From an uncultured delta proteobacterium (GTDB taxonomy: Bacteria > Myxococcota_A > UBA9160 > SZUA-336): DNA of 64,000 nucleotides. Of the stretch, positions 1 through 36,077 are shown one piece after another. Location: contig CAVPHD010000005.1 in assembly GCA_963704165.1 (NCBI GenBank), positions 96,001 through 160,000 on the forward strand. The letters run 5' to 3'. The notes beneath the pieces are model-generated. The model was not told the origin of the DNA. It did not search any database and saw only the letters and a program-made list of their open reading frames with translations. A program made the translations under genes and the position numbers. Positions within the stretch are counted from its first letter, which is position 1, and the number at the start of each line of letters is the position of its first letter.

Positions 1-25
1 CGCGCCGCGCGAGCTGGACCTACGG

Positions 26-1237: not shown

Positions 1238-1311
1238 GCTCGATTCGCCACTCCTTCGAACGGGCTGCGATCACCCGGATCCGCTCCTCACCCCATGAGG
1301 GGAGCCGCAAG

Positions 1312-1995: not shown

Positions 1996-2031
1996 AGTGT
2001 CCGGCCGATCGAAGTGACGTAGGTGTAGAGG

Positions 2032-2394
2032 ATGCCCATGGCACCGAAAGACCGACCCAGAGAGAGCAACCGGCGCAGATCCGAGCGCGAGGACCTGAAG
2101 GTCCGCGTCGACTACTCCGCCGTGGACGCGTTCTTCAGCGAGTTCACGACGAACGTCAATGAGGGCGGCATGTTCATCGCGACCGAGACGCCGGCGCCGC
2201 TGGACTCCGAGGTCGCACTCGAGTTCCGGCTTCCCGGTCTCGACCGACCCGTGAATGTCTCGGGTCGCGTCGCCTGGATCAGCGACGGTAAAGGCGACTC
2301 ACCCGTGGGGATGGGGATCGAATTCCACGAACTCGTCCCCGAGGTTCGCGCGACGATCAACGACCTCGTGCGAAGTCTCCGGCAGCGCCAGTAG
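2032..2394 (+). CDS. PilZ-domain protein (TIGR02266-like)
   Basis: RRxxR motif, NVNEGGMFI, GRVAW, GMGIEF. Confidence 0.88.
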   Translation: MPMAPKDRPRESNRRRSEREDLKVRVDYSAVDAFFSEFTTNVNEGGMFIATETPAPLDSEVALEFRLPGLDRPVNVSGRVAWISDGKGDSPVGMGIEFHELVPEVRATINDLVRSLRQRQ

Positions 2395-2410
2395 CCGCCA
2401 GCCCCCTTCG

Positions 2411-2851
2411 TCAGAAGGGGATCTCGTCGTCCGCACCGCTCGAAGATGGCGACGAGTCCGCGTAACCAGCGCCACTGCCACGCGCAGACGCGTCGTCGCC
2501 GAAGGACCCACCGTCGTCACCACGCCGACCGAGCATCTGCATCGTGTTCGCGACGATCTCGGTCGTGTATCGCTTGTTGCCTTCCTTGTCTTCCCATTCG
2601 CGCGTCTGCAGCCGGCCCTCGACATAGACCTGCTTGCCCTTCCGCAGGTACTCGCCGCAGATCTCCGCGAGTCGCGCCCAGGCGACGACCCGGTGCCACT
2701 CGGTTTTTTCCTGCGGCTCGCCGCTCTTGTCCTTCCACCGCTCAGACGTAGCGACGGAGAAGGTGCAGACGTGCTCACCGGACTTCGTTTGCCGGACCTC
2801 TGGGTCGCGCCCTACGTTTCCGACGATGATTACCTTGTTCACGCCAGCCAT
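2411..2851 (-). CDS. ssb: Single-stranded DNA-binding protein
   Basis: [32 protein letters not shown], acidic tail DDEIPF. Confidence 0.98.
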
Positions 2852-3086
2852 TGCGCACTCCTCTCGTACGAATCGGGGCGAGGATTCGACGACAGGCTAG
2901 CACAATGACGGTTGGGCAAGCCCGGTAGATCTTGCCTTTCTCGTCGCCGTTCCCGATCGTAGAGGTCCCCTCTGGGTTCGAGAGCGCGCTCGAGCCGTCG
3001 TCGCACTACGCGTTCGACGGATCGACGCGACGAGAGATCACGAGGACCGCGAATGAGGGGACAGCGCAACTCACGAGCGACGCAAC

Positions 3087-5375
3087 TTGGGTAGAGGCGT
3101 GAAGCGATCCGCGGCCAAACGCTCGACCAAGGCTGAACCTCGGCTGCCCGGGCGACTCGAGGCCGAGGCGGTGGCCGTGACGCTAGCTGTCCTCGCGCTG
3201 TTCACCGAGGCTGCGCTCCTCTCGTACGATCCGTCCGACCCACTGATTGCGAGCGGAGCGAGGGTCGAAAATTGGTGCGGTCCCGTCGGGGCGCTCGTGG
3301 CAGGCGGGCTGGCGGGCAGCCTGGGATTCGCCGCCCACGTACTTCCGCTCGCCGCGGGCGTCGTTGCGCTGCGCTATCTGCGCGGGCTGCCGTTGCGACC
3401 GCGCTGGATTCCCCTGGCGGGCTGGTCGCTCTGCCTGCTCAGTCTGGCGGCGGGCTTCGAAGTCCTTCACCGTGCGATCCCCGACTCGATCCCGGCGGGC
3501 GCGGGCGGGTTCCTTGGGATTGGAATCGTCGGCCCCTTGTCGCGAGCGTTCTACCTCGCGGGCTCGTCTCTCATTCTTTGGATCGCCGCGGCGCTCGGTC
3601 TACTGGCCGCGACGGGCGTATCGCTTCGAGATGCGACCCAGGGGGCGCGCCAACTCGTACGCCGAGCGGCGCGCGAATTCGGGCAGCTGGCGCGCGTGAG
3701 CGGAGTCCGCCTTCGCAGGCGCCTCGCGGCGCGTGCAGAGGCGCGAGGCGCAGAGCGCGAGGAGGCCGATCCCCCGACGCCTGGAACGCGCCAGAGCCAG
3801 AGAGCCGCGCCCCGTCTCACGCCGTCCCGAAGGGTCAAAGCGGGTGAGCCCGAGGTCGTCGAGTACCGCGTGGCCGCGCCCGCGCCGCTGCGTCAGGAGC
3901 CGTTGCCATTCGCGGACGGTCGAGCCGAGGGGCCGTACAAGCTGCCCGATCTCGATCTGCTCGCCCGCGGACCTGATTCGAGCCCGAACCTCGATCGCGA
4001 CGCGCTGATTCGCAACTCGCAGATCCTCGAGAAGAAGCTCGCCGACTTCGCCGTGCTCGGGCGCGTCGTGAAGGTGCATCCCGGTCCGGTGATCACGATG
4101 TACGAATTCGAGCCCGCGCCCGGTGTGAAGGTATCGCGCATCGTGAATCTGTCCGACGATCTCGCGCTCGCGCTGCGCGCGACCTCCGTCCGGATCGTCG
4201 CGCCGATCCCGGGGAAGAACGTCGTCGGGATCGAAGTGCCCAACGTCGAGCGAGACGTGGTGGTGATTCGCGACGTGATCGCGCACTCGTGCTTCCAGGA
4301 GGCCGAGTCGCGGATTCCGATCGCACTCGGCAAGGACATCTTCGGCAACCCCGTCACGGCCGATCTCGCTTCGACGCCGCATCTGCTCGTCGCGGGGGCC
4401 ACCGGCACGGGGAAGTCGGTGTTCCTCAACGCGCTGCTCTGCAGCATCCTCATGCGTTCGACGCCCGACGACGTCAAGCTCCTGCTCGTCGATCCGAAGA
4501 TGCTCGAGTTCTCGCTCTACCAAGGTGTTCCGCATCTGATCGCCGACGTCGTCACGAATCCGAAGCGCGCAGCCGCCGCGCTCCTCGGCGTCGTGAACAA
4601 GATGGAAGAGCGCTACCAGCTGATGGCGAAGCGCGGCGTGCGCAACATCGAGCAGTACAACAAGGCCATCGCCAAGGATCTCGCCACCCACCGGCCGAAA
4701 GCCGACGACGAAATCGTCCCGAAGAAGCTTCCGTACATCGTCGTCGTGATCGACGAGCTCGCAGATCTGATGATCGTCGCCGCGCGCGATGTCGAGGAGT
4801 CGCTGATGCGGCTCGCGCAGATGGCACGCGCCGCCGGCATCCACCTCGTGCTCGCGACGCAGCGCCCGAGCGTGGACGTGCTCACGGGGATCATCAAGGC
4901 GAACTTCCCGTCCCGAATCTCGTTCCAGGTGAGCTCGCGCACGGACTCGCGCACGGTTCTAGACGCGAATGGAGCGGAAAGACTGCTGGGCATGGGAGAC
5001 CTCCTCTACGTTCCACCCGGCAGCTCGAAGCTCGAGCGAATCCATGGGCCGTACATCTCCGAGAAGGAGGTCGAGGCCGTCACGAAGTGGGTACGCCAAC
5101 AGGGGTCTCCAGAATTCGACCCGACGCTGATTCGTCTCAGTCAGGAAAGCGAGAAGAACGAGGAGCGGGGGGAGGACCTCGATGAGCTCTTCGATCAGGC
5201 AGTCGACGTGGTCGCGCGCAACAGAATCGCGTCGATCTCGTTCGTTCAACGCAAGCTCAAGATCGGATACAACCGGTCGGCGAGGATTCTGGAGCAGATG
5301 GAGGCCGACGGCATCGTCGGGCCTCAAGAGGGAACCAAGCCCCGTGAGATCTTCGTCCGTCCGCCCGACGAGTAG
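3087..5375 (+). CDS. ftsK: DNA translocase FtsK
   Basis: N-terminal TM segments, PHLLVAGATGTGKS Walker A, VIDELADLM, ATQRPSVD, gamma domain QRKLKIGYNRSAR; start TTG 3087 or GTG 3099. Confidence 0.97.
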   Translation: MGRGVKRSAAKRSTKAEPRLPGRLEAEAVAVTLAVLALFTEAALLSYDPSDPLIASGARVENWCGPVGALVAGGLAGSLGFAAHVLPLAAGVVALRYLRGLPLRPRWIPLAGWSLCLLSLAAGFEVLHRAIPDSIPAGAGGFLGIGIVGPLSRAFYLAGSSLILWIAAALGLLAATGVSLRDATQGARQLVRRAAREFGQLARVSGVRLRRRLAARAEARGAEREEADPPTPGTRQSQRAAPRLTPSRRVKAGEPEVVEYRVAAPAPLRQEPLPFADGRAEGPYKLPDLDLLARGPDSSPNLDRDALIRNSQILEKKLADFAVLGRVVKVHPGPVITMYEFEPAPGVKVSRIVNLSDDLALALRATSVRIVAPIPGKNVVGIEVPNVERDVVVIRDVIAHSCFQEAESRIPIALGKDIFGNPVTADLASTPHLLVAGATGTGKSVFLNALLCSILMRSTPDDVKLLLVDPKMLEFSLYQGVPHLIADVVTNPKRAAAALLGVVNKMEERYQLMAKRGVRNIEQYNKAIAKDLATHRPKADDEIVPKKLPYIVVVIDELADLMIVAARDVEESLMRLAQMARAAGIHLVLATQRPSVDVLTGIIKANFPSRISFQVSSRTDSRTVLDANGAERLLGMGDLLYVPPGSSKLERIHGPYISEKEVEAVTKWVRQQGSPEFDPTLIRLSQESEKNEERGEDLDELFDQAVDVVARNRIASISFVQRKLKIGYNRSARILEQMEADGIVGPQEGTKPREIFVRPPDE

Positions 5376-6009
5376 CGCGCGCGCCCTGCTGGCGTGCCTG
5401 GTGCTCACGCTCGTCGCCGCAGAGGCGGAGGACGAAGCGGGCCGCACTCTCGATGCGGTGCAGACGCGCTACGACGCCGTCCGCGATCTGCGCGCGAGCT
5501 TCGAGCAATCGAGCTTCAGCACGGCGCTCGGTACGGAAGTCCGCTCTGGGGGCGAAGTGACCGTCGAGAGGCCCGGAAAGATGCGCTGGGAGTACGCGTC
5601 GCCCGACGGCCGCGTGATCGTCCTCGACGCGAACTCGATCCGGATCTGGAATCCCGAGGAGAACCAGCTTCAGATCGCCGCGATCTCGGTCGGCAACGTA
5701 TCCCCCACGGCACTCGGCTTTCTGCTCGGCCAGTCGGTCCTACGCGACGTGTTCGAGGCCGAGCTGATCTCGGAGCCCGCGCGCGCCGAGCGCGGGCTCC
5801 GACTCCGACCCAAGAGCGACGGCGGTTTCGAATTGCTGGAGTTGTGGGTCGACGCGAAGACCTATCAATTGCGGGAGTCCGTGGTCGTCGATCTGTTCGG
5901 GAACCGAACTCGCCTCCGACTCGACCAGATGCGCGAGAACGAAGGCGTCGGCAGCGCAGAGTTCGAGTTCTCCGCCCCCGAGGGAGCGGAGGTCATCGAT
6001 CTGCGATGA
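5344..6009 (+). CDS. lolA: Outer-membrane lipoprotein carrier LolA
   Basis: ASFEQ, RPGKMRWEY, FEFSAPEGAEVID; follows ftsK; start uncertain (GTG 5344 chosen, signal peptide follows). Confidence 0.9.
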   Translation: MRSSSVRPTSSARALLACLVLTLVAAEAEDEAGRTLDAVQTRYDAVRDLRASFEQSSFSTALGTEVRSGGEVTVERPGKMRWEYASPDGRVIVLDANSIRIWNPEENQLQIAAISVGNVSPTALGFLLGQSVLRDVFEAELISEPARAERGLRLRPKSDGGFELLELWVDAKTYQLRESVVVDLFGNRTRLRLDQMRENEGVGSAEFEFSAPEGAEVIDLR

Positions 6010-6476
6010 AGCGCGTTGTCGGTTTTGCGAATCCGAGTCCGGTGGCGCGCCATCCAAAGAGCGGCACGCCGCGACTCAGTTTGGGTGGCGAAGTCTTGAC
6101 GCCCGGGCCGTCGGCGAACCGTCGCGCCTGCGAGGGTCCGGCAGAGGCCGCTCGCCGAGCGATAAACCGTGGAGTCTCAAGGACTTTCGCCATTGGCTGC
6201 ACGCCTGGGGCCGTTGCAATGAGAAGACGTTTTGATAGACTTTTGAAGTATCCTAACTGTTCGATATATCAGGTGATTTTGGACCGAAGTCGGGTTCAGG
6301 GGTCAGTCCTTCCCGTACCGGGGCGTGTTGCTTCACCCGAGTTCCTTCATGCGAGCTGCAACGCGTCCGTGACTCCGGCGTATAAGCGCTTGAACGCTCA
6401 GGATTTTCTGTCGACACGACGCGACCTGGTGCTTTCTTCGCGCTCGCATCGGATACGAGCTTCGGCAGACTCTGCT

Positions 6477-6492
6477 TGGTATGTCGATTGCA
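6477..6492 (+). promoter_or_regulatory. Sigma-54 (-24/-12) promoter for the Pup-proteasome operon
   Basis: TGGTATG-TCGA-TTGCA matches TGGYAYR-N4-TTGCW with exact GG-N10-GC spacing; 40 nt upstream of the arc ATG, with GAGGAG RBS in between. Confidence 0.75.
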
Positions 6493-6532
6493 TTTCTCGG
6501 AGGCGCGGATCAGCGGAAGGCGAGGAGATCCA

Positions 6533-8365
6533 ATGAGCGACACGGGTTCGGGTTCCGGGAGGAGAGGGTTCGTCCGAGACGTAATGAAGCGCATCTCCGT
6601 CTCGCGCGGAGCTGATGACGACGAACGGGAGAGCCGCTTGCCTGACGACATGGATGAGATCGAGAAGGTTCGAGACTCGCTGCGCTTTCTTGGGCCGGAG
6701 TCGGCCGATCTCGCGCGTCGCGTCGAACGCGTCCTGATGGAGTACGAGATGCTCCGCCAGCGCGTCGAGCGTCAGCGGCAGCAGGTCTTCGACTCCGAGC
6801 GCCAGAACGAGAAGCTCGTCAGCGGACTGCAGGACGCAAAGCAGCAGATCGATCTGCTCAAGCAGGAGGTAGACAAGCTCTGCTCCCCGCCGAATACGTA
6901 CGGGATCTTCGAGCGCAGCAACAAGGACGGAACCTGCGAGATCAACGTCGACGGCAAGATGATGCGGGTGAACTCGCATCCGAGCATCCGCATCGAGGAG
7001 CTGATGGAAGGTCAGCTCGTCGTGTTGAATGAGGCCTTCAACATCGTCGACGCGACGACCTTCGACCCCCGCGGCGAGGTGATGACCGTTTCCGACGTTC
7101 TGGACGATGGGCGCGTGATCGTCCTCGGTCACGCCGACGAGGAGCGCGTGGTGAGCCTCTCGCAGCCGATGCGGCGCGAGAAGCTCAAGGCCGGCGACAA
7201 CCTGCTCGTCAATCCGCGCTCCGGATTCGGCGTGGAGCGTCTGCCAAAGTCCACGGTCGATCAGGTCATGCTCGAGGAAGTTCCCGACGTCACGTACGAG
7301 GACATCGGCGGACTCGGCGATCAGATCGAAGTCCTGCGCGACGCGATCGAGCTGCCGTACCTGCATGCCGACCGCTTCAAGCGCTACAGCCTCTCGCCAC
7401 CGAAGGGCATCCTCCTCTACGGACCTCCGGGGTGCGGGAAGACCATGATTGGCAAGGCGGTGGCCAACAGCCTCGCGCTTCGCATCCAGGAGCTGCGCGG
7501 CGGCGAAGCGAAGAGCTACTTCCTCAACGTGAAGGGTCCGGAGCTCCTGAACAAGTACGTCGGTGAGACGGAGCACAAGATCCGCGAAGTGTTCAAGAAC
7601 GCGCGAGAGAAGGCGGAGGAGGACGTTCCCGTCGTCATCTTCTTCGACGAGATGGATTCACTCTTCCGCATGCGTGGATCCGGGATCTCGTCTGACATGG
7701 AAGCGACGGTCGTCGCGCAGTTCCTTTCGGAGATCGACGGAATCGAGTCTCTGCGGAACGTGATCGTGATCGGTGCGAGCAATCGCCAGGATCTGATCGA
7801 TCCGGCGGTGCTTCGACCCGGTCGCCTCGACCTGAAGGTGAAGGTGCATCGACCCGAGAAGGCCGGAGCGCTGCAGATCTTCACCAAGTACCTGACGACC
7901 GATCTGCCGTTCAGCCAGGATGCGACGAACAAGTACGGACCGGATGTGAAGGCGATCGTTCACGGCATCGTCTCGGAAACCGTCGAGTCGATGTACGCGG
8001 AGAACGAGGAGAACAAGTTCCTCGAGGTCACCTACGCGAAGGGCGAGCGCGAGATCTTCTTCTTCAAGGATTTCTCGAGCGGCGCGATGCTGAAGAACAT
8101 CGTGGACCGCGCCAAGAAGAAGGCGGTGAAGCGGGCGATCACCTCCGGTGACGACGGAGTCCGCCTCTCGGACATGCTCGAATCCGTGCGCGAGGAGTTC
8201 AAGGAGAACGAGGACCTGCCGAACACGACGAACCCCGACGACTGGGCGCGGATCTCCGGGCGAAAGGGCGAGCGCATCATCAACGTGCGCACGCTGATCA
8301 CCGGCATGAACCGCTCGGAGCACCAGATCGAGAACGTCGGCGGTGGCTCGGGGCAGTATCTCTGA
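6533..8365 (+). CDS. arc: Proteasome-associated AAA+ ATPase ARC/Mpa
   Basis: N-terminal coiled coil ending PPNTYG, OB region, GPPGCGKT Walker A, NVKGPELLNKYVGETE, FFDEMD Walker B, ENEDLPNTTNPDDWARISG, C-terminal GQYL. Confidence 0.97.
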   Translation: MSDTGSGSGRRGFVRDVMKRISVSRGADDDERESRLPDDMDEIEKVRDSLRFLGPESADLARRVERVLMEYEMLRQRVERQRQQVFDSERQNEKLVSGLQDAKQQIDLLKQEVDKLCSPPNTYGIFERSNKDGTCEINVDGKMMRVNSHPSIRIEELMEGQLVVLNEAFNIVDATTFDPRGEVMTVSDVLDDGRVIVLGHADEERVVSLSQPMRREKLKAGDNLLVNPRSGFGVERLPKSTVDQVMLEEVPDVTYEDIGGLGDQIEVLRDAIELPYLHADRFKRYSLSPPKGILLYGPPGCGKTMIGKAVANSLALRIQELRGGEAKSYFLNVKGPELLNKYVGETEHKIREVFKNAREKAEEDVPVVIFFDEMDSLFRMRGSGISSDMEATVVAQFLSEIDGIESLRNVIVIGASNRQDLIDPAVLRPGRLDLKVKVHRPEKAGALQIFTKYLTTDLPFSQDATNKYGPDVKAIVHGIVSETVESMYAENEENKFLEVTYAKGEREIFFFKDFSSGAMLKNIVDRAKKKAVKRAITSGDDGVRLSDMLESVREEFKENEDLPNTTNPDDWARISGRKGERIINVRTLITGMNRSEHQIENVGGGSGQYL

Positions 8366-8366
8366 C

Positions 8367-9854
8367 ATGCCACTACCGAGCGTATTGGGCAGCGAGATCG
8401 AGTACGGGATCACCGTCCAGGGCGACCCGGACTTCGACCCGATCTCGAGCTGCGTTCTTCTGGTCAACGCGTATCAGGACAACGAGGAAGCCCGAATTCT
8501 CTGGGACTACGAGCAAGAGAACCCGCTGGCCGATGCGCGCGGCTTCCACGTCGAGGGCGAGAAGTACACGCCCAATCAGCAGGAGAACATCGCGCGCAAC
8601 AAGACGCTCCGGAACGGCGCGCGTTTCTACGTGGACCATGCGCACCCGGAGTACTCGACGCCCGAGGTCACGAACGTCCGCGACCTGATCGCGTTCGAAC
8701 GCGCCGGCGAACGTACGATGGAGGCAGCGCGGCGGGCGGCGACGGCACTGCTGCCGAGCGGCCAGACGGTGTTGATCCACAAGAACAACAGCGACCGCAA
8801 GGGAAACTCCTACGGCAATCACGAGAACTATCTGATCGAGCGCCGGACGCCGTTCCGCGAGATCGTCGAGCACATGACGCCGTTCCTGATCACGCGGAAC
8901 ATCTTCTGTGGCGCGGGCAAGGCCGGCAGCGAGAACCGCGCGCACCCGTGCGAGTATCAGATCAGCCAGCGCGCCGATTTCTTCGAGACCGAGGTCGCGC
9001 TCGACACGATGGTGAAGCGGCCGATCATCAACACGCGGGACGAACCTCACGCAGATCGCGAGAAGTACAGGCGCTTCCACGTGATCATCGGTGACTCGAA
9101 CTTGTGCGAGGTCTCGACCTATCTACGAATCGGGGTGACTGCGATCGTGCTCGGTCTCGTCGAGGACGGCGCGATTCCCAAGAGCCTCGCCGTGAACGAC
9201 CCCGTCAAGGTCGTCAAGGAAATCTCACACGACCTGGCGTGCAAGCGCGCGTACCCGATGGAGCGGGGTGGGCGCATGACCGCCGTCGAGGTTCAGAAGG
9301 AATACCTCGAGAACGCGTTGCGCTACTTCTCGTCGCGTGCGCTCGATCCGATCACGAAGGACGTCCTCGTCCGCTGGGAGCGAGTGCTGTCGCAGATCGC
9401 CGAAGACCCGTTCCAACTCGATCGCGAGGTCGATTGGGTGATCAAGCACAAGCTGATCAAGACCTACATGGGACGCCACGGCGTGGATTGGCACCATCCG
9501 CAGGTACACATGCTCGACCTGCAGTACCACGACGTGCGACCGGACAAGGGCCTCTACCACGTGCTCGAGCGACGCGGAGAAGTCGATCGCATCGTCGAGC
9601 CCGAGGCGATCGAGCGCGCTGTTCGAACGCCGCCGAGCGACACTCGCGCCTACTTCCGCGGCGAGTGCATCCGGCGCTACCCTGAACAGGTGTTCGGCGT
9701 GAACTGGGATTCGATATCGTTCAACGTGGGTGATGAGCCGATCAAGCGAATCCTCATGAACGAACCGCTCAAAGGCACGCGAGCGCACGTGGAAGAGCTG
9801 TTCGAGTCCAGTCCCACGGCCCAGGATCTTGTTCGCAATCTCACGGCGTCGTGA
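8367..9854 (+). CDS. dop: Depupylase/deamidase Dop
   Basis: GSEIEYGI, Dop-loop WDYEQENPLADARGF, RFYVDHAHPEYSTPE, SYGNHENY, NTRDEPHAD, Dop-type C-terminus EPLKGTRAHV. Confidence 0.93.
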   Translation: MPLPSVLGSEIEYGITVQGDPDFDPISSCVLLVNAYQDNEEARILWDYEQENPLADARGFHVEGEKYTPNQQENIARNKTLRNGARFYVDHAHPEYSTPEVTNVRDLIAFERAGERTMEAARRAATALLPSGQTVLIHKNNSDRKGNSYGNHENYLIERRTPFREIVEHMTPFLITRNIFCGAGKAGSENRAHPCEYQISQRADFFETEVALDTMVKRPIINTRDEPHADREKYRRFHVIIGDSNLCEVSTYLRIGVTAIVLGLVEDGAIPKSLAVNDPVKVVKEISHDLACKRAYPMERGGRMTAVEVQKEYLENALRYFSSRALDPITKDVLVRWERVLSQIAEDPFQLDREVDWVIKHKLIKTYMGRHGVDWHHPQVHMLDLQYHDVRPDKGLYHVLERRGEVDRIVEPEAIERAVRTPPSDTRAYFRGECIRRYPEQVFGVNWDSISFNVGDEPIKRILMNEPLKGTRAHVEELFESSPTAQDLVRNLTAS

Positions 9855-9869
9855 GCTAGGGAGAGAGGC

Positions 9870-10127
9870 ATGAAGATCTTCAGACACGAAACGCGGCCGG
9901 CCGTCGGCATCTGGGGCGCGGCTGGCGACCAGACGCAGAAGCAGAAGCCGGGCTCCGGCGATTCGGGCAGCACTCCTTCCTCGGACGCAGGCGGGCAGAA
10001 GAAGCTCGCGAAGAAGGGCGAGGAGCTCAAAGAGGAGATGGACAATCTGATCGACGAGATCGACGAGGTCCTCGAGGCGAATGCCGAGGAGTTCGTGAAG
10101 AACTACGTTCAGCGCGGCGGCGAGTAG
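9870..10127 (+). CDS. pup: Prokaryotic ubiquitin-like protein Pup
   Basis: Disordered N-half, then DNLIDEIDEVLEANAEEFVKNYVQRGGE; RBS upstream; lies between dop and prcB. Confidence 0.96.
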   Translation: MKIFRHETRPAVGIWGAAGDQTQKQKPGSGDSGSTPSSDAGGQKKLAKKGEELKEEMDNLIDEIDEVLEANAEEFVKNYVQRGGE

Positions 10128-10131
10128 CCCG

Positions 10132-10914
10132 GTGTTCAAAGGTCAGACCTACGCCGGCGACAGCTTCTTCGAGTTCCTGCGCGTCGATCATCCCGGACTC
10201 CTGCCGGACTGGACGCACATGGATTGGACCCACGTCTCCTTGCTTCACGGCACGACGGTGCTCGCGATCGTGTGCAAGGAAGGCGCGCTCATGGCAGGTG
10301 ACAGGCTGGCGACCGAGGGACACCAGGTCGGGACGCGAGATCTCGAGAAGGTCTTCCGAATCGACGACTCGAGCCTGATGGCAATCGCCGGAGCCGCGGG
10401 CCCCGCGATCGAGATGGTCCGCATGTTCCAGCTCGAACTCGAGCACTTCGAGAAGCTGGATGGACAGCCGCTGAGCTTCGAAGGCAAGGCGAATCGGCTC
10501 TCGTTCCTGCTCCGTCAGAACCTGCCGGCCGCGATGCAGGGACTGGTGGTGATGCCGATCTTCGCCGGCTTCGACCACGACAAGGGACGCGGCCGAATCT
10601 ACAAGTTCGACATCACGGGCGGACGCTTCCGCGAGGCCGACTATTACTCGACGGGCTCCGGCGGAAAGGATGCGCGGAGTTCGCTCAAGCGGATCGTGCG
10701 CCACGAAGATCTCTCGCGTGAAGAGGCGATCCGCGCCGCCATCGAGGCTCTGGTCGACGCCGCCGACGAGGATCGCGCCACGGGTGGTATCGACGTCGTG
10801 CGCGGCATCTTCCCGACCGTGAAGCTGGCCACGCGATCTGGCGTCGAGGACGTACAGGACGACGAGTTGCGTCGGATCTACGAGGCGATCGCAGCCGAGA
10901 GACGAGCGGCCTGA
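10132..10914 (+). CDS. prcB: 20S proteasome beta subunit
   Basis: 40-aa propeptide ending HG|TT; Thr1, Asp17, Lys33 in register; TGSGG motif; LSFEGKANRL. Confidence 0.96.
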   Translation: MFKGQTYAGDSFFEFLRVDHPGLLPDWTHMDWTHVSLLHGTTVLAIVCKEGALMAGDRLATEGHQVGTRDLEKVFRIDDSSLMAIAGAAGPAIEMVRMFQLELEHFEKLDGQPLSFEGKANRLSFLLRQNLPAAMQGLVVMPIFAGFDHDKGRGRIYKFDITGGRFREADYYSTGSGGKDARSSLKRIVRHEDLSREEAIRAAIEALVDAADEDRATGGIDVVRGIFPTVKLATRSGVEDVQDDELRRIYEAIAAERRAA

Positions 10915-11603
10915 TGAGCACGCCCTTCTACGTTTCGCCGGAGCAGTGGTACCAGGACAAGGCCGAGTACGCGCGCAAGGGAATCGCGCGTGGCCGGCCG
11001 ATCGTCGCGCTCGAGTACGAGTCGGGCATCGTCATGATGGCCGAGAATCGCAGTGCGACGCTGCGCAAGATCTCCGAGATCTACGATCGCATCGCGTTCG
11101 GCGGGGTCGGAAAGCTCGACGAGTACGAGACCCTGAGGAAGTCGGGTGTGCGCTACGCCGACATGCGCGGTTACTCGTTCTCGCGCGAGGACGTCGCGGG
11201 GAAGAGCCTGGCGAACGAATACTCCAATGTCCTCGGCTCGGTCTTCACGCGCGAGATGAAGCCGCTCGAGGTCGAGATCCTCGTCGTCGAGATCAAGGAA
11301 CCCGGAAGCGCCCTCTATCAGATCCGCTACGACGGCAGCATGTCCGACATGACGCACTTCGCGACGATCGGAGGCGACGGCGACAAGCTCGGCGACGTGA
11401 TCCGGGCCGGCTGGAAGCCCGGATTGCCGCTCACCGACGCGGCGAAGCTCGCTCGGCGTGCGCTCGCTGGTTCGGGGAACTCGGGATCCATCGATGACCT
11501 CGACGAGAAGAGCCTCGAGATCGCGATCCTCGACCGCGCGCGCACAGGACGTACCTTCAGGCGGATCGTGGGCGAGGAGGCCAAGGCTCTCCTCCGAGAA
11601 TGA
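10914..11603 (+). CDS. prcA: 20S proteasome alpha subunit
   Basis: PFYVSPEQ..DKAEYARKGIARGR, KISEIYDRI, KPLEVE, LEIAILDR; TGATG overlap with prcB. Confidence 0.96.
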   Translation: MSTPFYVSPEQWYQDKAEYARKGIARGRPIVALEYESGIVMMAENRSATLRKISEIYDRIAFGGVGKLDEYETLRKSGVRYADMRGYSFSREDVAGKSLANEYSNVLGSVFTREMKPLEVEILVVEIKEPGSALYQIRYDGSMSDMTHFATIGGDGDKLGDVIRAGWKPGLPLTDAAKLARRALAGSGNSGSIDDLDEKSLEIAILDRARTGRTFRRIVGEEAKALLRE

Positions 11604-11617
11604 TCGGCGGGAACTAA

Positions 11618-13024
11618 GTGCAGAAGCGGATCTACGGTCTCGAGACGGAGTACGGGATCATATTCACGCCGGAGGGTCGCAAGACGCTGCCGGTCGAGAA
11701 GGCGATTCGCTTTCTGTTCGAGAAGCTGATCACGACCGAGCATTTCCTGAACGTGTTCTTGGAGAACGGCGCGCGCTTCTACCAGGACACCGGTTGTCAT
11801 CCGGAGTACGCGACGCCCGAATGCGCGAGCCCGAGAGATCTCGTGATCTTCGATCGAGCCGGCGAGCGCATCCTCGAGGACCTGCAGCTATACGCGGAAG
11901 AGAAGATCCGCGAAGAGCGCGTTCCGGGCAAGCTCTCGATCTTCAAGAACAACACCGACTTCGTCGGCAACTCCTATGGTTGTCACGAGAACTACCTGGT
12001 CGACCGCGACGTCGATTTCTACTACCTGGCCGAGCAGCTGATCCCGTTCCTGGTGACGCGTCAGATCTTCAGCGGCGCGGGAAAGGTCTTCCAGACGCAG
12101 GACGGGGTGCACTACTGCATCAGTCAGCGCGCGCAGCACATCTACCAGAAGATCTCGGGCACGACGACGAACGACCGCTCGATCATCAACACACGCGACG
12201 AGCCCCACGCCGACCGGGAGAAGTACCGCCGTCTTCACGTCATCGTCGGCGACTCGAACATGAGCGAGTACACGAACTTCGTGAAGATCGCGACCGCCGC
12301 GGTCGTGCTGCAGATGATCGAGGATGGCTTCATCAACAAGGACTTCACGCTCCGACACCCCGTGAAGGCGATCAAGGACATCTCGTACGACACGACCTGC
12401 AAGCGCAAGCTCCGTCTCGAGAACGGGCGCGAGTACTCACCGATCGAGATTCAGCGCGAGTACTGCGAGATGGCGCAGCGCTACATAGAGCAGTTCCCGG
12501 TCAGCGATCAGCTTCGCGAGGGTGTTCGCGAATGGCAGTACATCCTCGACTGCCTCGACAGTGATCCCGAGAAGCTCGACCGGAAGATCGATTGGATCAT
12601 CAAGCGGAAGGTGCTTCGCGGGTACATCGAGAAGCACCAGATCTCCTGGCACGACCCGCGGGTGTTCATGATCGACCTGCAGTTCCACGACCTGCGCCGT
12701 GACCGGGGCTTCTTCTACATGCTGGAGCGCAACGATCACGTCGATCGGCTCTATACCGACTCGGAGATCGAGAAGGCCAAGACCGAGCCGCCTCAGGACA
12801 CGCGCGCGCGAATGCGCGGTGACTTCATCAAGCTGGCCCGGCAGAACAACATCCAGTACGACCTCGACTGGTCGAACATCCGGCTCGGAAACCTTCTGAA
12901 CGTTCGCGTGATCTGCAACAACCCGTTCGAGACCGACACCGAGAAAGTCACGGAGCTCGTTCGCACGATCCAGAAGACGAACCTGCGCCGCACCTCGCTT
13001 TCCAAACTCGTGATTCAGAGCTGA
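11618..13024 (+). CDS. pafA: Pup-protein ligase PafA
   Basis: RIYGLETEYG, FLENGARFYQDTGCHPEYATPEC (catalytic Asp equivalent), SYGCHENYL, RSIINTRDEPHAD, PPQDTRARMRG, PafA-type C-terminus; lacks the Dop loop. Confidence 0.94.
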   Translation: MQKRIYGLETEYGIIFTPEGRKTLPVEKAIRFLFEKLITTEHFLNVFLENGARFYQDTGCHPEYATPECASPRDLVIFDRAGERILEDLQLYAEEKIREERVPGKLSIFKNNTDFVGNSYGCHENYLVDRDVDFYYLAEQLIPFLVTRQIFSGAGKVFQTQDGVHYCISQRAQHIYQKISGTTTNDRSIINTRDEPHADREKYRRLHVIVGDSNMSEYTNFVKIATAAVVLQMIEDGFINKDFTLRHPVKAIKDISYDTTCKRKLRLENGREYSPIEIQREYCEMAQRYIEQFPVSDQLREGVREWQYILDCLDSDPEKLDRKIDWIIKRKVLRGYIEKHQISWHDPRVFMIDLQFHDLRRDRGFFYMLERNDHVDRLYTDSEIEKAKTEPPQDTRARMRGDFIKLARQNNIQYDLDWSNIRLGNLLNVRVICNNPFETDTEKVTELVRTIQKTNLRRTSLSKLVIQS

Positions 13025-13028
13025 CCCA

Positions 13029-13403
13029 ATGGACCAGGAACCCAAGCTTCGATCCGTTCCACCCGGCGCGCCCTCGGGGCCCGCGACCCGCCGCGATCCG
13101 CTCGCACGATCCGAGCCAGATCCGCCACGGAATCGCACGCAGCTCGTGCTGGCCACCGCGCTCGCGCTCGCGCTCGTCCTGTTGGTCTGGAGCTACTTCT
13201 CGCTCGGTTCGCGCATCGACTCGCTCGAAGGCGAAGCGCAGGTTCTGCGCGCGGCCGTCGCCGAACGGGATGAGCTGATCAACGCCCAGCGCAACCGTCT
13301 CGACGAGGTTCGTGGCCGCGTGAAGGAGTTGCTCCAGATCGTCGAGCAACCCGTGACCGGCGAGCCCGCGCCCGCCCCTGAAGCGACCCCCGCGAACCCG
13401 TAA
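13029..13403 (+). CDS. Single-pass membrane protein with coiled coil
   Basis: Pro-rich N-terminus, TM helix LVLATALALALVLLVWSYF, heptad region; starts 4 nt after the pafA stop. Confidence 0.75.
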   Translation: MDQEPKLRSVPPGAPSGPATRRDPLARSEPDPPRNRTQLVLATALALALVLLVWSYFSLGSRIDSLEGEAQVLRAAVAERDELINAQRNRLDEVRGRVKELLQIVEQPVTGEPAPAPEATPANP

Positions 13404-13505
13404 CCCGCAGCTGAACCCGGCGCGCGCACTCAGGGTCCGGTGCCTTCTTGCCGATGAAGGAGGAGGCATGGGGCGCGGTCCCCCTCGAGATTCGGAGCCG
13501 ACACG

Positions 13506-14540
13506 ATGTACAGGTGGCTTGCTGGGCTGCTCTCGAACGATCTCGCCATCGATCTCGGGACGGCCAATGTGCTCGTCTACGTCAAAGGTCGCGGGATCAT
13601 CTGCAGTGAACCGTCGGTCGTAGCCGTTGCGGACGGGCCGAACGGGACCCGAAAGGTCCTCGCTGTTGGCACCGAGGCCAAAGAAATGATCGGCCGTACG
13701 CCAGGCTCGATCCGTGCGATCCGCCCGATCCAGGACGGCGTCATCGCCGACTTCGAGGTCACGGAGGCGATGCTCCGATACTTCATCCAGAAGGCCCACA
13801 ATCGTCGGCGCCTGGTCCGCCCGCGGATCGTGATCTGCGTTCCGCCGTGCATCACCTCCGTCGAGAAACGCGCCGTGCGCGAATCGGCGATGTCCGCGGG
13901 CGCGCGCGAGGTCTACCTGATGGAAGAGCCGATGGCAGCGGCGATCGGCGCGGGTCTGAACGTCACCGAGCCGACCGGGAACATGGTGATCGACATCGGC
14001 GGCGGCACGACCGACGTGGCCGTGATCTCGATGGCCGGGATCGTCACGTCGAGCTCCGTGCGCGTCGGTGGCGACAAGCTCGACGAAGCGATCATCCACT
14101 ACGTCAAGCGCAAGCACAATCTCCTCGTCGGCGAGCGAACGGCCGAGATCATCAAGATCACGATCGGCACCGCGATGGCTACCGGCCCGACGAAGACCAT
14201 GGAGATCAAGGGCCGCGACCTCGTCGCCGGCATCCCGAAGATGATCGTGCTCTCGAGTGACGAGGTGCGTGAAGCGCTCTCCGAGCCGATCCATCAGATC
14301 ATCGACACGGTCCTGCAGACGCTCGAACGCACGCCGCCCGAGCTCGCCGCCGACATCGTCGATCGGGGAATCGTTCTCGTGGGCGGTGGCGCGCTTCTGC
14401 GCGACTTCGATCAGCTTCTGCGCCAGGAGACGAAGCTGCCGATCGTGCGCAGCGACGATCCGTTCACTGCCGTCGCGGCGGGCGCGGGAAAGGCGCTGGA
14501 CAACATCGGCCTTCTGCGCGAAGTCGCGATGGCCTACTGA
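13506..14540 (+). CDS. mreB: Rod shape-determining protein MreB
   Basis: AIDLGTAN, GVIADFE, EEPMAAAIGAG, DIGGGTTDVA, GRDLVAGIPK, TPPELAADI, GGGALLR. Confidence 0.97.
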   Translation: MYRWLAGLLSNDLAIDLGTANVLVYVKGRGIICSEPSVVAVADGPNGTRKVLAVGTEAKEMIGRTPGSIRAIRPIQDGVIADFEVTEAMLRYFIQKAHNRRRLVRPRIVICVPPCITSVEKRAVRESAMSAGAREVYLMEEPMAAAIGAGLNVTEPTGNMVIDIGGGTTDVAVISMAGIVTSSSVRVGGDKLDEAIIHYVKRKHNLLVGERTAEIIKITIGTAMATGPTKTMEIKGRDLVAGIPKMIVLSSDEVREALSEPIHQIIDTVLQTLERTPPELAADIVDRGIVLVGGGALLRDFDQLLRQETKLPIVRSDDPFTAVAAGAGKALDNIGLLREVAMAY

Positions 14541-14542
14541 CG

Positions 14543-15145
14543 CTATTCGGGCGTCATGATGGCCATCGCCATCTTCATCGGCACTTCGACGTCGCCGCCG
14601 AGCTCGAGCTTCCCCGTCATGAATGCGCCCTGAAGGTCGATCTCGCCGCTGAGCAGCTGGCCGAACTCTACGTCCCCGATCGAGACCTTCGTCGTGGATT
14701 TCGGCACCGGGGGCGCGCCGAAATGCAGCACGACACCCCAGTCCGCTTCGCTCTTCACTTCGAGCTGGAGCGTACCCCCGACCTCACGAAGCGCGGCGAC
14801 GCGCGCTGGCGTGAGCACGAAATCGGGATTCCCGCCGACCCCGCCGAGTAGCGCCATCGGCGACGGGCCGACGGTCGCCTCGAGCCGGCTGCAGTCCGAT
14901 TCCGAGAGGGCGAGCGTCACGAGCGGATCTGCGTGGACCGTCTCGGCGCAGCGCATTTCACCGTGCTCGACCACGAGGTGGAAGCGGCCGCTGGCGCCGA
15001 CCTCGACCTCGAGCGCGAAATCCGCGGCGCGCATCTTCGCGAGCAGTTCCGCGCCATCCGCGCCACGTGCGACCTGAGCCGCGAGGCGCTGGTTCCAAGC
15101 TGCGGGTACCTCTTTTCCGAAATACTCAGCGGCGCTGGCCATCAT
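14543..15145 (-). CDS. SCP2 sterol/lipid-binding domain protein
   Basis: C-terminal DLQGAFMTGKLELGGD SCP2 signature; second degenerate SCP2-like unit N-terminally. Confidence 0.75.
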   Translation of the reverse strand: MMASAAEYFGKEVPAAWNQRLAAQVARGADGAELLAKMRAADFALEVEVGASGRFHLVVEHGEMRCAETVHADPLVTLALSESDCSRLEATVGPSPMALLGGVGGNPDFVLTPARVAALREVGGTLQLEVKSEADWGVVLHFGAPPVPKSTTKVSIGDVEFGQLLSGEIDLQGAFMTGKLELGGDVEVPMKMAMAIMTPE

Positions 15146-16199
15146 CGCTCCTCACCAGATTCCTCCGGCGTTTGCTCTGATACCGTTTTACCGCGGCGTT
15201 GTGGTCGGTCAAGTTGGTCGAGAACACGTGCGAACCGTCGTTTCGCGCCACGAAATACAGATAGGGCACGTCCGCGGGGAAGAGCACCGCCCGGATCGCC
15301 TCGATCGATGGACTCGCGATCGGGCTCGGTGGCAACCCCGTGCGCGTGTACGTGTTCCAGGCGTTGTCCTCGCGAAGATCACGACTGCGGATGTCGCCGT
15401 CGAACGACCCGCGCGTCTGCACGATTCCGTAGATGACCGTCGGATCGGACTGAAGTCGCATTCCGATCCGCAATCGATTGCGATACACGCCCGCGATCAG
15501 CGGGCGTTCGTCGGCCCGTGCGGATTCCTTCTCGACGATCGACGCCAGCGTCACGACCTGATCGAGCGTGAAACCGGAGCTCGCGATCGACTCCAGATCC
15601 TCCGGCGTGAGCCGCTTGCGGAACTCCGCGAGCATGCGCTCGAGAACGTCCTCGGGCGGAGTGTGCCGTCGGAAGCGGTAGGTTTCGGGATAGGCGTAGC
15701 CCTCTAGCGATTTCGCCTGCAGCCCGAGCCCGCTCGCGAAGCTCGGGTCGCGCGCCAGCGCGAGAAAGGCCGTACCATCGGTGATGTCCGCGTTGCCGAG
15801 GCGCAGCGCGATCTCGTCGAGGCGCAGGCCCTCGGGCAACGTGACCTCGTGCATCTTGACCTTGCCGCGCACGATCCTGTCGAGGATCTCGATGGGGGTC
15901 ATGGCGGCCGAGAGTTCGTACTCGCCGCTCTTGATCGCGCGGTCCTTGCCGCTGAGGCGCGCATAGACGACGAGTGCGCGCGGGCCGAACAGGGCGCGTT
16001 TCGGGAGCAACTGCGCTTCGGCGAGGCGCTTCGCGATCGGCGCGAGCGACTCGCCGGGCGCAACCCAGAAGATGGTGTTGCCAGCGGCGGGATCGGCGGG
16101 CTCGCGCAGCCCCGAGGCGACGAACCCGAGCGCGATCGAGACGGCGATGGCCATCGCGCCGACGACCGCGATGGCGGCGAGGGCGGGCTTCCGCCTCAT
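15126..16199 (-). CDS. mltG: Endolytic transglycosylase MltG (YceG)
   Basis: N-terminal TM, VTLPEG, LEGYAYPETY, LASIVEKE, NRLRIGMRLQSDPT, NTY..GLPPSPI. Confidence 0.96.
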   Translation of the reverse strand: MRRKPALAAIAVVGAMAIAVSIALGFVASGLREPADPAAGNTIFWVAPGESLAPIAKRLAEAQLLPKRALFGPRALVVYARLSGKDRAIKSGEYELSAAMTPIEILDRIVRGKVKMHEVTLPEGLRLDEIALRLGNADITDGTAFLALARDPSFASGLGLQAKSLEGYAYPETYRFRRHTPPEDVLERMLAEFRKRLTPEDLESIASSGFTLDQVVTLASIVEKESARADERPLIAGVYRNRLRIGMRLQSDPTVIYGIVQTRGSFDGDIRSRDLREDNAWNTYTRTGLPPSPIASPSIEAIRAVLFPADVPYLYFVARNDGSHVFSTNLTDHNAAVKRYQSKRRRNLVRSDDGQRR

Positions 16200-16612
16200 C
16201 GACGCTGGCGTTCCAGCCAGGTGCTGAGGAGAAGCGAGGCGGCGATCGGATCCACGCGTCCGCGCTGCTTCTTCCGGGAGACACCGGAGTCGTCGAGCAT
16301 CCGCTCCGCCTCGCGCGAGGTCCAGCGCTCGTCCAGATACTCGACCGGAACACCCGTGCGCTTTCTCACGCGCTCGCCGAACGCATTCGTGCGCTCGACT
16401 TCCGGGCCGGCGCGGCCGTCCATGTGCAGCGGCAGGCCGATCACGATCTGACCGACTTCACGCGTCGCCACGATCTCCGCGATTCGAGACAGCGCCGCGG
16501 CATCGCCGCGCTTGGTCACGATCGTCTCGAGCGGCTGGGCGAGCATGCCCAGCGAGTCGCTGATCGCGACACCGATGCGGGCTTCGCCGTAGTCGAGAGC
16601 CAGGGTGCGCAC
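16196..16612 (-). CDS. ruvX: RuvX/YqgF family nuclease
   Basis: LALDYGEARIGVAISD, VIGLP, DERWTS, VDPIAA. Confidence 0.95.
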   Translation of the reverse strand: MRTLALDYGEARIGVAISDSLGMLAQPLETIVTKRGDAAALSRIAEIVATREVGQIVIGLPLHMDGRAGPEVERTNAFGERVRKRTGVPVEYLDERWTSREAERMLDDSGVSRKKQRGRVDPIAASLLLSTWLERQRR

Positions 16613-16657
16613 CTCCAGATCATAGCCGCGATCCGAGCGTGGCCCTTGCGACCCTCG

Positions 16658-18157
16658 TCACGCTTTGTTCGCGAGCGCTCCGGCCAGTCGGCGCAATCCC
16701 TCCCGACAGGATTGGCGCACGGCGGGGTCCCCCCGGTGTTCGTGTCTCCGCAGCGCCTGCAGCGCGGGAACCCCGCCGATCTGGGTGATCGCCTGCGCAG
16801 AGGCCACCCGCAGCCCGCGAAATCGAGAGGCTCGGAGGAACGGCGCGCGGTCGAGAATCTGCGACAACGCGGTGATGGCCGCGGGATTGCCGATTCGGCC
16901 GAGGCTGTGAATCGCGGCCCGGCGCACGCTCTCCGCGCGATGTTGCCGTTCGTCGATGACCTCGTACAGCGCCGGAAGCGCCTCGGGCCGACGCAGGCCT
17001 CCGAGGCAGCCCGCGCAAGCCTCCGCGATCTCATCGCCCGCCCGAAGGCCGTCGACCAGCGCCTTCAGTGCGCCATCGTCGCCGATTCGAGCCAGCGCCA
17101 GAGCTGCCTCGCGGCCGAGCGACGCGTCGGGCCCCGCGAGGGCGTCGGCCAGGAAGCTGACGCCTCTTGGGTTCTGCATCTCGCCGAGCAGGCGCGCGGC
17201 GCGGCGCGCGCGTTCCGGCTGCTGCGCGGCGAGCTCATCCACGACCTGTGCGAGGGCGTCGTCGCCGAGCGCGATCAGGAGCTGCGTCACGCGGGCGCGC
17301 GACGCGTCCTTGCGGCTCTCCAGCTGACGGAGCAGGCGCGGCACGGCGATCGTTCCGATCGCGATCAGGACCTGGCTCGCCTGCACGCTCGCCAGGCCCG
17401 AATTCCCGCACGCCTGCTCGACGACGGCATCGAGCAGGTCGTCCTTGCGGCCGAGCCGACCGAGTCGGTCCAATGCCTCCCGGCGAATCGAATCGGGGCG
17501 ATGATGACGATCGGTCGCGTGCCGGGCGAGCACGAGCGCCGCGCGATACGCCTCCATGCTGCGCTTGGCGCGCACGAGCACGTCCACCGACGCCTCGATC
17601 TTGTTCGCGGTCAGGTTGTAGCTCGCGACGTCGTCACAGGTTTCGAGCTCCGAGAGGTGTCGGACGAGGTTGGCAATGTGCTGGGTCAGGAACGCGTTCG
17701 ATTCCGTGCTCGCCGATGCGTCGCCGTTCGGCTTGCGTTCGACCGCCTCGATCGTGCGTGTCCCTGCGGTTCGCAGCGCGCCGGGCAGACCGCCCTGATG
17801 CGCGAGCACCTCGGGTTCTCGCGCGAGCGCCTCGATCACGATCTCGAACTCGGCCGCCGTCGGATCGCCGCAGAAGCGCAAGCGTTGCAGCCGACGCACG
17901 CGCATCTCGTCTGCGAACTCACCCGCACCGGGTCCCGAGATCGGCACGTCGCCGTCGAGCACGAGCCCCGCGTCGCCGACTTCGAGCGCAAACTCGCGCG
18001 CGCTTGCGGGGAGGGCGCGACTCGCCGATTCGCAGCGCTGCACCGCCTCTGTGACGATCGGATGCGTCGGCGGGTGCACGCGCCGGGCGCGGATCGCGCG
18101 CGTCAGCTCGAACACGAGCGGCGCGACGTCTCGTGAGGTCGCTCTTCCCGTTTGCAT
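16658..18157 (-). CDS. HEAT-repeat protein
   Basis: Repeated AARLLGE / AALALARIG / AAIHSLGRIG helical pairs in the C-terminal half. Confidence 0.8.
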   Translation of the reverse strand: MQTGRATSRDVAPLVFELTRAIRARRVHPPTHPIVTEAVQRCESASRALPASAREFALEVGDAGLVLDGDVPISGPGAGEFADEMRVRRLQRLRFCGDPTAAEFEIVIEALAREPEVLAHQGGLPGALRTAGTRTIEAVERKPNGDASASTESNAFLTQHIANLVRHLSELETCDDVASYNLTANKIEASVDVLVRAKRSMEAYRAALVLARHATDRHHRPDSIRREALDRLGRLGRKDDLLDAVVEQACGNSGLASVQASQVLIAIGTIAVPRLLRQLESRKDASRARVTQLLIALGDDALAQVVDELAAQQPERARRAARLLGEMQNPRGVSFLADALAGPDASLGREAALALARIGDDGALKALVDGLRAGDEIAEACAGCLGGLRRPEALPALYEVIDERQHRAESVRRAAIHSLGRIGNPAAITALSQILDRAPFLRASRFRGLRVASAQAITQIGGVPALQALRRHEHRGDPAVRQSCREGLRRLAGALANKA

Positions 18158-23127: not shown

Positions 23128-25770
<2,643 letters not shown>

Positions 25771-25876
25771 CCCCCCGCATTCGCATCGGATCTGCCCTTC
25801 GGGCCAGCGCCACGTGGGTACGGGATTCGCCACTTCCTGTAGAGTGCGGCTTCGCCGTGGCCCACAGGGAGTAGCG

Positions 25877-27781: not shown

Positions 27782-27784
27782 AAC

Positions 27785-35665: not shown

Positions 35666-35788
35666 CCCGGCTCGAGGCTCGCGGGTTTCTGTAAGTGTCC
35701 GGTTTTTCACGGATTTTGCACAGTAAACGGGGATCCCAGCGCTGTCAACGCAGGCACCCCCCAAGCCGACTCGAGAAGAGGACGAACG

Positions 35789-36061: not shown

Positions 36062-36077
36062 AGCCGGAGACGGCTTC

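Follow-up and report, generated by a model that had tools for sequence, protein, structure and literature searches.

In reviews, the proteasome is presented as an actinobacterial feature among bacteria, found only sporadically in a few others (PMC6466877, PMC3511204). The locus analysed here raises the question of whether a Gram-negative, myxococcotal lineage has a complete Pup-proteasome system of its own, and where such a system comes from. It lies in a 64,000-nucleotide stretch of DNA from an uncultured delta proteobacterium (assembly GCA_963704165.1, contig CAVPHD010000005.1, positions 96,001 to 160,000), which is called the window below and to whose first letter the coordinates refer. A preliminary description had reported a complete, long-resident operon of actinobacterial type in a diderm genome. 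We found that the six-gene operon is intact and, judged from its genes and motifs, very probably works as it does in mycobacteria. It belongs to the core traits of one Myxococcota class, in which it occupies a fixed ftsK-lolA...mreB site. The operon is a variant of the known system in its host, PafA clade, promoter and Pup architecture, and its core chemistry is almost certainly the known one.

An open reading frame (ORF) check of the window gave six intact ORFs in the order arc-dop-pup-prcB-prcA-pafA, all on the + strand between 6533 and 13024:

6533..8365, + strand: arc (mpa), proteasomal AAA+ unfoldase, 610 aa, ending in GQYL; over the TIGR03689 cut-off
8367..9854, + strand: dop, depupylase/deamidase, 495 aa, with the Dop loop; over the TIGR03688 cut-off
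9870..10127, + strand: pup, 85 aa, long form, ending in RGGE; over the TIGR03687 and PF05639 cut-offs
10132..10914, + strand: prcB, 20S beta subunit, 260 aa, with a 40-aa propeptide and Thr1 at 10252; over the TIGR03690 cut-off
10914..11603, + strand: prcA, 20S alpha subunit, 229 aa; over the TIGR03691 cut-off
11618..13024, + strand: pafA, putative Pup ligase, 468 aa, with a clade-specific alpha-loop (residues 174-187) and no Dop loop; 540.6 bits with TIGR03686, cut-off 551.3

From arc to pafA, the intergenic spacing is +1, +15, +4, -1 and +14 nt, in agreement with the tight, contiguous arrangement described before. The actinobacterial Pup-proteasome system (structures 4B0T, 4BJR, 4B0R, 5LRT) has the same six genes in the same order. 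Gene identity was determined with NCBIfam profiles and their curated cut-offs in bits. Arc scored 721.5 with TIGR03689 (cut-off 504.75), Dop 576.8 with TIGR03688 (492.3), PrcB 272.5 with TIGR03690 (191.9) and PrcA 278 with TIGR03691 (139.05); Pup scored 57.1 with TIGR03687 (41.45) and 67.8 with PF05639 (27). In the series TIGR03686 to TIGR03691, five of the six proteins thus passed and PafA fell short.

The motifs named in the preliminary description (the GQYL tail, the Dop loop, the GGE end of Pup, and T1/D17/K33 of the beta subunit) were all found. Arc contains Walker A and B, the pore loop, the arginine finger and the C-terminal GQYL. All but the last are kept in 54 of 54 near-full-length copies, and among 64 complete ends the tail reads GQYL in 59, GQYV in 3 and otherwise in 2. 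In PrcB, T1/D17/K33 follow the propeptide; they occur in 67 of the 72 copies examined, the other five having no HGTT/RGTT site in the matched stretch. Dop carries the Dop loop, which PafA lacks. Dop matches the solved Dop structures 5LRT and 4B0R over its full length (E 3e-157), and the YxDHAHPEY motif of this enzyme was seen in 64 of 64 copies. The catalytic motifs, Dop loop, GQYL tail, Pup helix and GG[E/Q] end are shared with the actinobacterial system, from which the present one differs in its diderm host, its other PafA clade and alpha-loop, and the presence of HslV and Lon. Following the mechanism described for Pup-proteasome systems (PMC6466877, PMC3511204), PafA would attach Pup to lysines of its substrates, Arc would unfold proteins so tagged and feed them to the 20S proteasome, and Dop would take the tag off again.

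HslV was over its cut-off in 54 of the 61 class genomes, and the window genome has four Lon genes. Replacement of HslUV by the proteasome was ruled out on these grounds. Since HslV and Lon coexist with it, the proteasome is an addition; it would complement Lon and HslUV with a regulated route that selects its substrates, and would not replace them. The search for Bpa, another point of comparison with the actinobacterial system, gave no match here, although its positive control likewise gave none.

The ligase was considered separately. PafA retains GhExE, Asp57, the one-residue PafA-type insertion after this Asp, Thr183, Thr184 and Arg193, residues whose roles are taken from PMC7947786. By these features it appears to be a Pup ligase that groups with PafA and not with Dop. 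An AlphaFold model (predicted local distance difference test, pLDDT, 76) had the PafA-Pup complex 4BJR as its best fold match, with a template modelling (TM) score of 0.87; the fold discriminates little between PafA and Dop, because Dop structures follow closely at 0.83. Three observations weigh against a plain assignment. The first is the TIGR03686 score under the cut-off. The second comes from the 22 positions that discriminate ligases from depupylases (Table 1 of PMC7947786): 8 and the insertion are PafA-like, one (Pro67) is Dop-like, and 12 are neither, mostly within the alpha-loop. The third is that this loop was modelled at a pLDDT under 50. The TIGR03686 cut-off is passed by 13 of 41 relatives, and the PafA proteins of Nitrospinota, Entotheonella and Vecturithrix likewise lie below it, at 534-543 bits. 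We file the window protein as a putative PafA-clade ligase, not as a strict member of TIGR03686.

The alpha-loop matches the actinobacterial signature at 2 of 9 positions (His174 and Ser180). It is the same in 75 of 77 class copies, and a TTTN[D/E]R loop is common to the wider PafA clade. In actinobacterial PafA this loop makes substrate contacts (PMC7947786), and an invariant, different loop would suit a ligase of narrow specificity, which would modify a single conserved partner or a few of them as a means of regulation and not for bulk degradation. Such a role would also suit the retention of four Lon genes and HslV, and the mean pairwise identities among 39 loci, which are 87% for PafA, 80% for MreB, 73% for both Arc and Dop, 63% for PrcB and 61% for PrcA. 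However, the Arc docking tail and the PrcB catalytic triad are conserved, which argues that degradation is under selection. The alpha-loops of actinobacterial-type PafA are also nearly invariant, so that invariance of the loop alone does not imply a narrow substrate range. We consider a ligase of this narrow kind improbable.

The distribution of the operon bears on whether it could be an assembly chimera, a contamination or a recent transfer from an actinobacterium. In favour of such an origin, the genome assembly consists of 12 contigs and is 84% complete, and some metagenomic PafA proteins (P0090, P0091) do look chimeric. However, 54 of 57 same-class genomes have prcA, against none of 243 genomes from other classes of the phylum; pup was found in 36 of 37 class genomes and in none of 163 others, the latter set overlapping the prcA sample. 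The PafA/Dop family was matched in 41 of 41 near relatives. Among the best 80 PafA loci from genome records, arc is immediately preceded by lolA in 56, 22 are ended by contig edges, and two (L072, L085) differ; the same neighbourhood therefore recurs in 56 independent records. The guanine-plus-cytosine content at third codon positions (GC3) of the operon is host-like, at 0.83-0.88 against 0.81-0.86 for four neighbours. Built for 39 loci, the trees of the operon and of ftsK+mreB have 15 of 16 strong flank splits in common, with no conflicts (Mantel p 0.001); as the flank genes are linked to the operon, this agreement shows joint inheritance of the block. The window PafA is 47% identical to that of Nonomuraea and 61-64% identical to its nearest relatives outside the class, which fall in clusters named Entotheonella/Entotheonellia, Nitrospinota, Vecturithrix and CSSED10-310. 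In an approximately unbiased (AU) test, the grouping of the class with Actinobacteria was rejected (p 3.3e-5). Because the locus is conserved across the class and the operon tree is congruent with its flanks, a chimera and a recent transfer were excluded, with synteny, GC3 and the AU test in accord; we give them a vanishingly small probability. The claim of a complete and long-resident system is borne out by the class-wide presence, the fixed neighbourhood and the congruent tree.

The titles of the 80 records are mostly Myxococcota or Deltaproteobacteria. A minority is labelled Spirochaetaceae, Geobacter or Gammaproteobacteria; those of them that were put in the tree share the clade and the gene order, and the odd labels are presumably submitters' mislabels. 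The host class is probably UBA9160, since two of the PafA-locus records are UBA4427 and UBA6930, a genus and a family placed in class UBA9160 ('Vahlivitia', Myxococcota_A; 10.64898/2026.07.10.737566). In the available part of the main text of that paper, the word 'proteasome' has no occurrence.

The origin of the operon was addressed with PafA trees (quick IQ-TREE, LG+G4). A first tree was discarded; five probable chimeras (P0090, P0091, P0092, P0095, P0098), in which actinobacterial or Dop parts are fused to class PafA and which distort trees, had drawn Nonomuraea PafA into the class. They were removed from the two trees built afterwards, and for the later of these and the AU test 31 long-branch or redundant rows were also dropped, leaving 36 of 67. 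The class forms a clade (support 99-100) within the Entotheonella/Nitrospinota/Vecturithrix/CSSED10-310 clade (98-100), separate from Nitrospira, Methylomirabilota and actinobacterial-type PafA. The Pup loci of these four groups, sharing the PafA clade and the TTTN[D/E]R loop, are thus the nearest kin of the operon, and the label 'actinobacterial-type' had to be given up. In comparison with the loci of Nitrospirota, Nitrospinota, Methylomirabilota (NC10), Tectomicrobia and Moduliflexota, the system here is fixed across a whole class at one locus. A single clade of all non-actinobacterial PafA was not rejected (AU test, p 0.39) and the root position differs between the two trees; for these reasons we claim no donor. 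The patchy presence, with absence from sister classes, would fit one old acquisition from a diderm pool or many losses.

The surprise implied by the preliminary description has also to be reduced. Pup systems of Nitrospirae, NC10 and Nitrospinae have been published (PMC7947786). In the same paper, Hecht 2021, the occurrences in NC10, Nitrospinae and Proteobacteria are given as sporadic, and transfer out of Actinobacteria is proposed. The NCBI annotation of relatives already reads 'Pup--protein ligase [Myxococcales bacterium]'. Iyer, Burroughs and Aravind 2008 described sporadic Pup outside Actinobacteria; in the available portion of their text, deltaproteobacteria appear only through a proteasome-less membrane ligase of Plesiocystis (PMC2588565). 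The Plesiocystis/Rhodopirellula membrane Pup ligase belongs to the glutamine synthetase (GS)-fold ligase family, as does the window PafA. The Plesiocystis-type enzyme has a transmembrane insert and no proteasome, whereas the window PafA can be aligned over its whole length with soluble PafA, and its gene is linked to prcBA. No paper on a Pup system in this Myxococcota class was found in the literature covered, which did not extend to subscription papers.

A second protein of the PafA/Dop family is encoded elsewhere in the genome (G000:C12:29356-31155, + strand, 599 aa). It has a hydrophobic insert of the Plesiocystis type, lies upstream of gatC/gatA and has no Pup gene nearby; similar frames of 595-655 aa occur in about 15 of 41 relatives. 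This membrane ligase could use the Pup of the operon, the sole Pup-like gene found in the genome. One class genome carries two extra Dop/PafA-like pairs of ~200-220 bits (G034:C88:2711-5519 and G034:C42:28937-31960), which are possibly UBact-type or other tagging systems. In L127 (9001-10413), L125, L130 and L131, pafA stands apart from the proteasome genes, and in L127 it is followed by a membrane coiled-coil ORF. In three Methylomirabilota-type loci (L120, L121, L124) and one Nitrospira locus (L134), dop abuts prcB with no pup between them, unlike the class operon, and no Pup-like helix was seen elsewhere on these loci.

A UBact-proteasome operon, with a small tag, ligase, depupylase, ATPase and 20S proteasome, was reportedly described in Gram-negative phyla by Lehmann et al. 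in 2017. The UBact tag ends in R[S/T]G[E/Q] and is not known to pass the Pup models. The window tag differs in that it passes TIGR03687 and PF05639 and ends in YVQRGGE, and RGGE or RGGQ is the end in 69 of 69 class Pups (GGE in 48, GGQ in 21). A UBact identity was therefore dismissed, and the tag is a true Pup, as had been stated. The proposal that Dop acts only as a depupylase fits the window genome, whose Pup ends in Glu, and fails for the class: as 21 of 69 Pups end in Gln, the deamidase role is likely needed in ~30% of it. Dop deamidation would thus likely still be needed across the lineage, though not in the window genome.

The Pup of this operon carries an N-terminal leader:

9873..9917, + strand: Pup N-terminal leader, codons 2-16, a hydrophobic stretch before an Ala-Ala junction; candidate propeptide, with a leader in 54 of 68 class Pups

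The survey covered 68 class Pups with a Shine-Dalgarno-led ATG; two were omitted, and L040 is frameshifted but was counted. The lengths fall into two classes, 54 Pups of 83-99 aa and 14 of 66-70 aa, with no intermediates. The leader adds 15-32 residues, made up of a basic start, a hydrophobic stretch and then Ala-Ala (>90% conserved), and the short Pups start at the Ala-Ala junction. For comparison, Nonomuraea Pup has 69 aa and actinobacterial-type metagenome Pups mostly 62-65 aa, against 85 aa for the leader-bearing Pup here. In the long forms a Shine-Dalgarno sequence precedes the start ATG and the internal Met codons have none, and the dop-pup gap is similar in both classes (median 19 nt for the short and 30 nt for the long forms), which argues that the short Pups arose by deletion of leader DNA. 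Alignment of close relatives revealed deletions of 51 nt and 45 nt directly after the same ATG, and independent deletions stop no more than two codons from the junction. Mapped on a tree of 74 loci, the leader state changes 10 times, against 14 in shuffles, and 8 of the changes are forced by strong branches. The leader was lost at least eight times by clean in-frame deletion. The window leader resembles that of L014.

Outside the class, the leader was found in four of four complete Entotheonellia/Nitrospinota-like loci, namely L092, L094 and L095, whose PafA lies beside Entotheonellia, and L107, where it lies beside Nitrospinota. In the ESM Atlas, a cluster of 90-aa Pups comes mostly from Tectomicrobia. 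The leader is absent from Nonomuraea and the actinobacterial-type loci; L133 (Nitrospirae) is ambiguous. Translation from an internal Met was rejected, as no Shine-Dalgarno sequence stands there and 30 of 51 leaders lack that Met. An RNA-level, intron-like leader was rejected as well, since every long form keeps the reading frame and synonymous sites show no constraint. Searches for a Pup extension or leader returned no paper, and the leader is a new element with respect to the literature covered.

Because the loss is all-or-none at a fixed junction and intermediate lengths do not occur, the leader may be a removable propeptide, and a cut at the Ala-Ala junction would then free the end by which Pup is normally threaded. 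We hold this view tentatively, and commit to it ahead of the two alternatives given below. The short leader of ribosomal protein L27 in Firmicutes, with a hydrophobic end before Ala, is cleaved by Prp, and leaderless relatives of that protein begin at the junction. This analogy concerns the Pup leader alone, and no sign of Prp/L27-type processing itself was found in the window genome: the Prp protease (PF04327) had no match in the 84% complete assembly, with the positive control matched in three genomes, and the L27 protein begins MAHKK, without a leader.

These two absences weigh against a propeptide, and so do the following points. The ratio of nonsynonymous to synonymous substitution rates (dN/dS; 16 pairs, protein-guided alignments, biased low) was 0.45 for the leader start, 0.38 for the motif, 0.23 for the disordered linker and 0.06 for the helix; selection on the leader is thus weaker than on the linker. 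The leader is dispensable in 14 of 68 class Pups. Met is the last residue in 21 of 51 leaders, so that exact ends could come from deletion between two ATGs and would require no cleavage. For the same leader on other proteins, 43,981 ORFs were put through a position-weight scan, which gave 85 matches, with a weak motif on which Pup itself scored 13.0, and among the top 40 none was convincing but Pup. TldD/PmbA genes are present in the genome, and nothing ties them to Pup.

The leader might instead stay on Pup (several mechanisms are pooled here): as an extra handle for the Arc pore loops, as a degron through which Lon, HslUV or ClpXP would set the level of free Pup, or as a segment that PafA or Dop binds. 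At least three phylum-level groups share its basic start and hydrophobic end, the leader is under protein-level selection (dN/dS < 0.5) at a normal synonymous rate, and no processing protease was found, all of which speak for a retained segment. Yet a retained segment does not account for the absence of partial deletions, and sister genomes with 95-99% identical Arc and PafA lose the leader. We regard an uncleaved, functional leader as possible, at less than even probability. A third explanation is a near-neutral extension that arose a single time, when an upstream start codon was captured, and that was lost through chance deletion. At least eight losses, the variable length and sequence, the junction Met kept in 21 of 51 leaders as direct repeats for deletion, and the low bias of the dN/dS values would agree with it. 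However, 54 of 68 class Pups and the outgroup clade still have the leader, and in the family of the window genome five of six other long forms have no internal Met while the deletions still stop at the junction. Near-neutrality seems to us rather unlikely. The removable propeptide can be put more broadly, in a form that we consider doubtful: a separate Gram-negative pupylation branch (the class, Tectomicrobia and Nitrospinota) would make Pup as a pro-protein, clipped at the hydrophobic-Ala-Ala site before threading.

Two predicted promoters lie in the lolA-arc gap:

6477..6492, + strand: predicted sigma-54-type -24/-12 element, 40 nt before the arc start, from a consensus score across loci
6214..6241, + strand: predicted distal sigma-70-like promoter, TTGCAA-N16-TAGACT, with an A+T-rich stretch after it, from a pattern in relatives

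The sigma-54 score, with weights from the sigma-54 consensus, reached at least 10.2 in 56 of 57 loci against 1.4% of 1140 shuffles, the sites being mostly 55-210 nt before the arc match. A strict sigma-54 pattern matched only 10 of 57 loci. The window holds a single match, where 0.01 is expected. The genome encodes RpoN and 13 near-full-length enhancer-ATPase domains. Unfavourable to sigma-54 control, no shared enhancer is visible in the 190 nt above the site. The element, present here, scores 7.2-8.6 in six actinobacterial-type loci; it is missing from the Entotheonellia/Nitrospinota-like loci (5.6-6.6 in the three with enough sequence) and borderline in Methylomirabilota-type loci (9.6-10.2, n=3). 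No relevant paper on sigma-54 and pupylation was found in the literature covered. The sigma-70-like pattern, which was drawn up post hoc after the gaps had been viewed, occurs in 50 of 57 lolA-arc gaps against 23 of 5700 shuffles, 300-1200 nt upstream. The window copy is weak, and a generic promoter scanner does not list it. Just after it, an A+T-rich stretch (6240-6285) is conserved at matching places in relatives; it presumably resembles a bending site of the integration host factor (IHF) type. No Rfam match to a structured RNA was obtained in the gap of the window or of four loci. The distal promoter would provide basal expression, and sigma-54 with an enhancer-binding protein would induce the operon conditionally, so that expression is predicted to be boosted from the sigma-54 promoter.

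The operon is flanked by ftsK and lolA upstream and by mreB and mltG downstream. Of the neighbours named in the preliminary description, lolA and mltG do flank it; bamD is genuine but lies ~22 kb downstream (34811-36460). The absence of mobile elements from the flanks was corroborated, as neither a transposase nor an integrase was present among 17 ORFs scanned in 1-18157 or 30 scanned in 16661-63999. The host is a diderm, since its genome has BamA; BamD and LolA, in the window, are further outer-membrane markers that support the earlier statement. One more gene follows the operon directly:

13029..13403, + strand: single-pass membrane protein of 124 aa with a coiled coil, 4 nt after pafA and before mreB; no family over cut-off

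Family profile searches with this protein gave no match over cut-off. An ORF with a hydrophobic segment stands directly 3' of pafA in at least 40 of 82 class loci (strict threshold) and was not seen in Entotheonellia/Nitrospinota-like loci. The protein is possibly co-transcribed with pafA. The preliminary description had mentioned neither this coupled gene nor the Pup leader nor the promoter. Two further observations concern the rest of the window. A Mpl/MurC-like ligase (45219-46663, + strand) is split over two overlapping frames, probably by a frameshift or sequencing error. After alaS, two large ORFs of ~690 and ~2330 aa (25703-34789, + strand) had no NCBIfam match at E 1e-15.

Since the core chemistry is almost certainly known, the advance is an incremental one unless processing of the leader turns out to occur. 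If the leader is processed, Pup would have a maturation switch never described, paired in the class with sigma-54 control and its own ligase substrate code. The natural pairs of long and short Pups beside 95-99% identical enzymes offer a ready test of the role of the Pup N-terminus, and the highly conserved PafA with its different substrate loop is a tool for studying how PafA picks substrates. The PafA clade is a multi-phylum diderm group and no direct offshoot of Actinobacteria; the direction of transfer that PMC7947786 assumes is thereby up for reconsideration, with trees that leave the root unfixed. For the organisms themselves, the Pup-proteasome system, elsewhere a sporadic exception outside Actinobacteria, here belongs to the fixed core traits of an entire Gram-negative class that is widespread.

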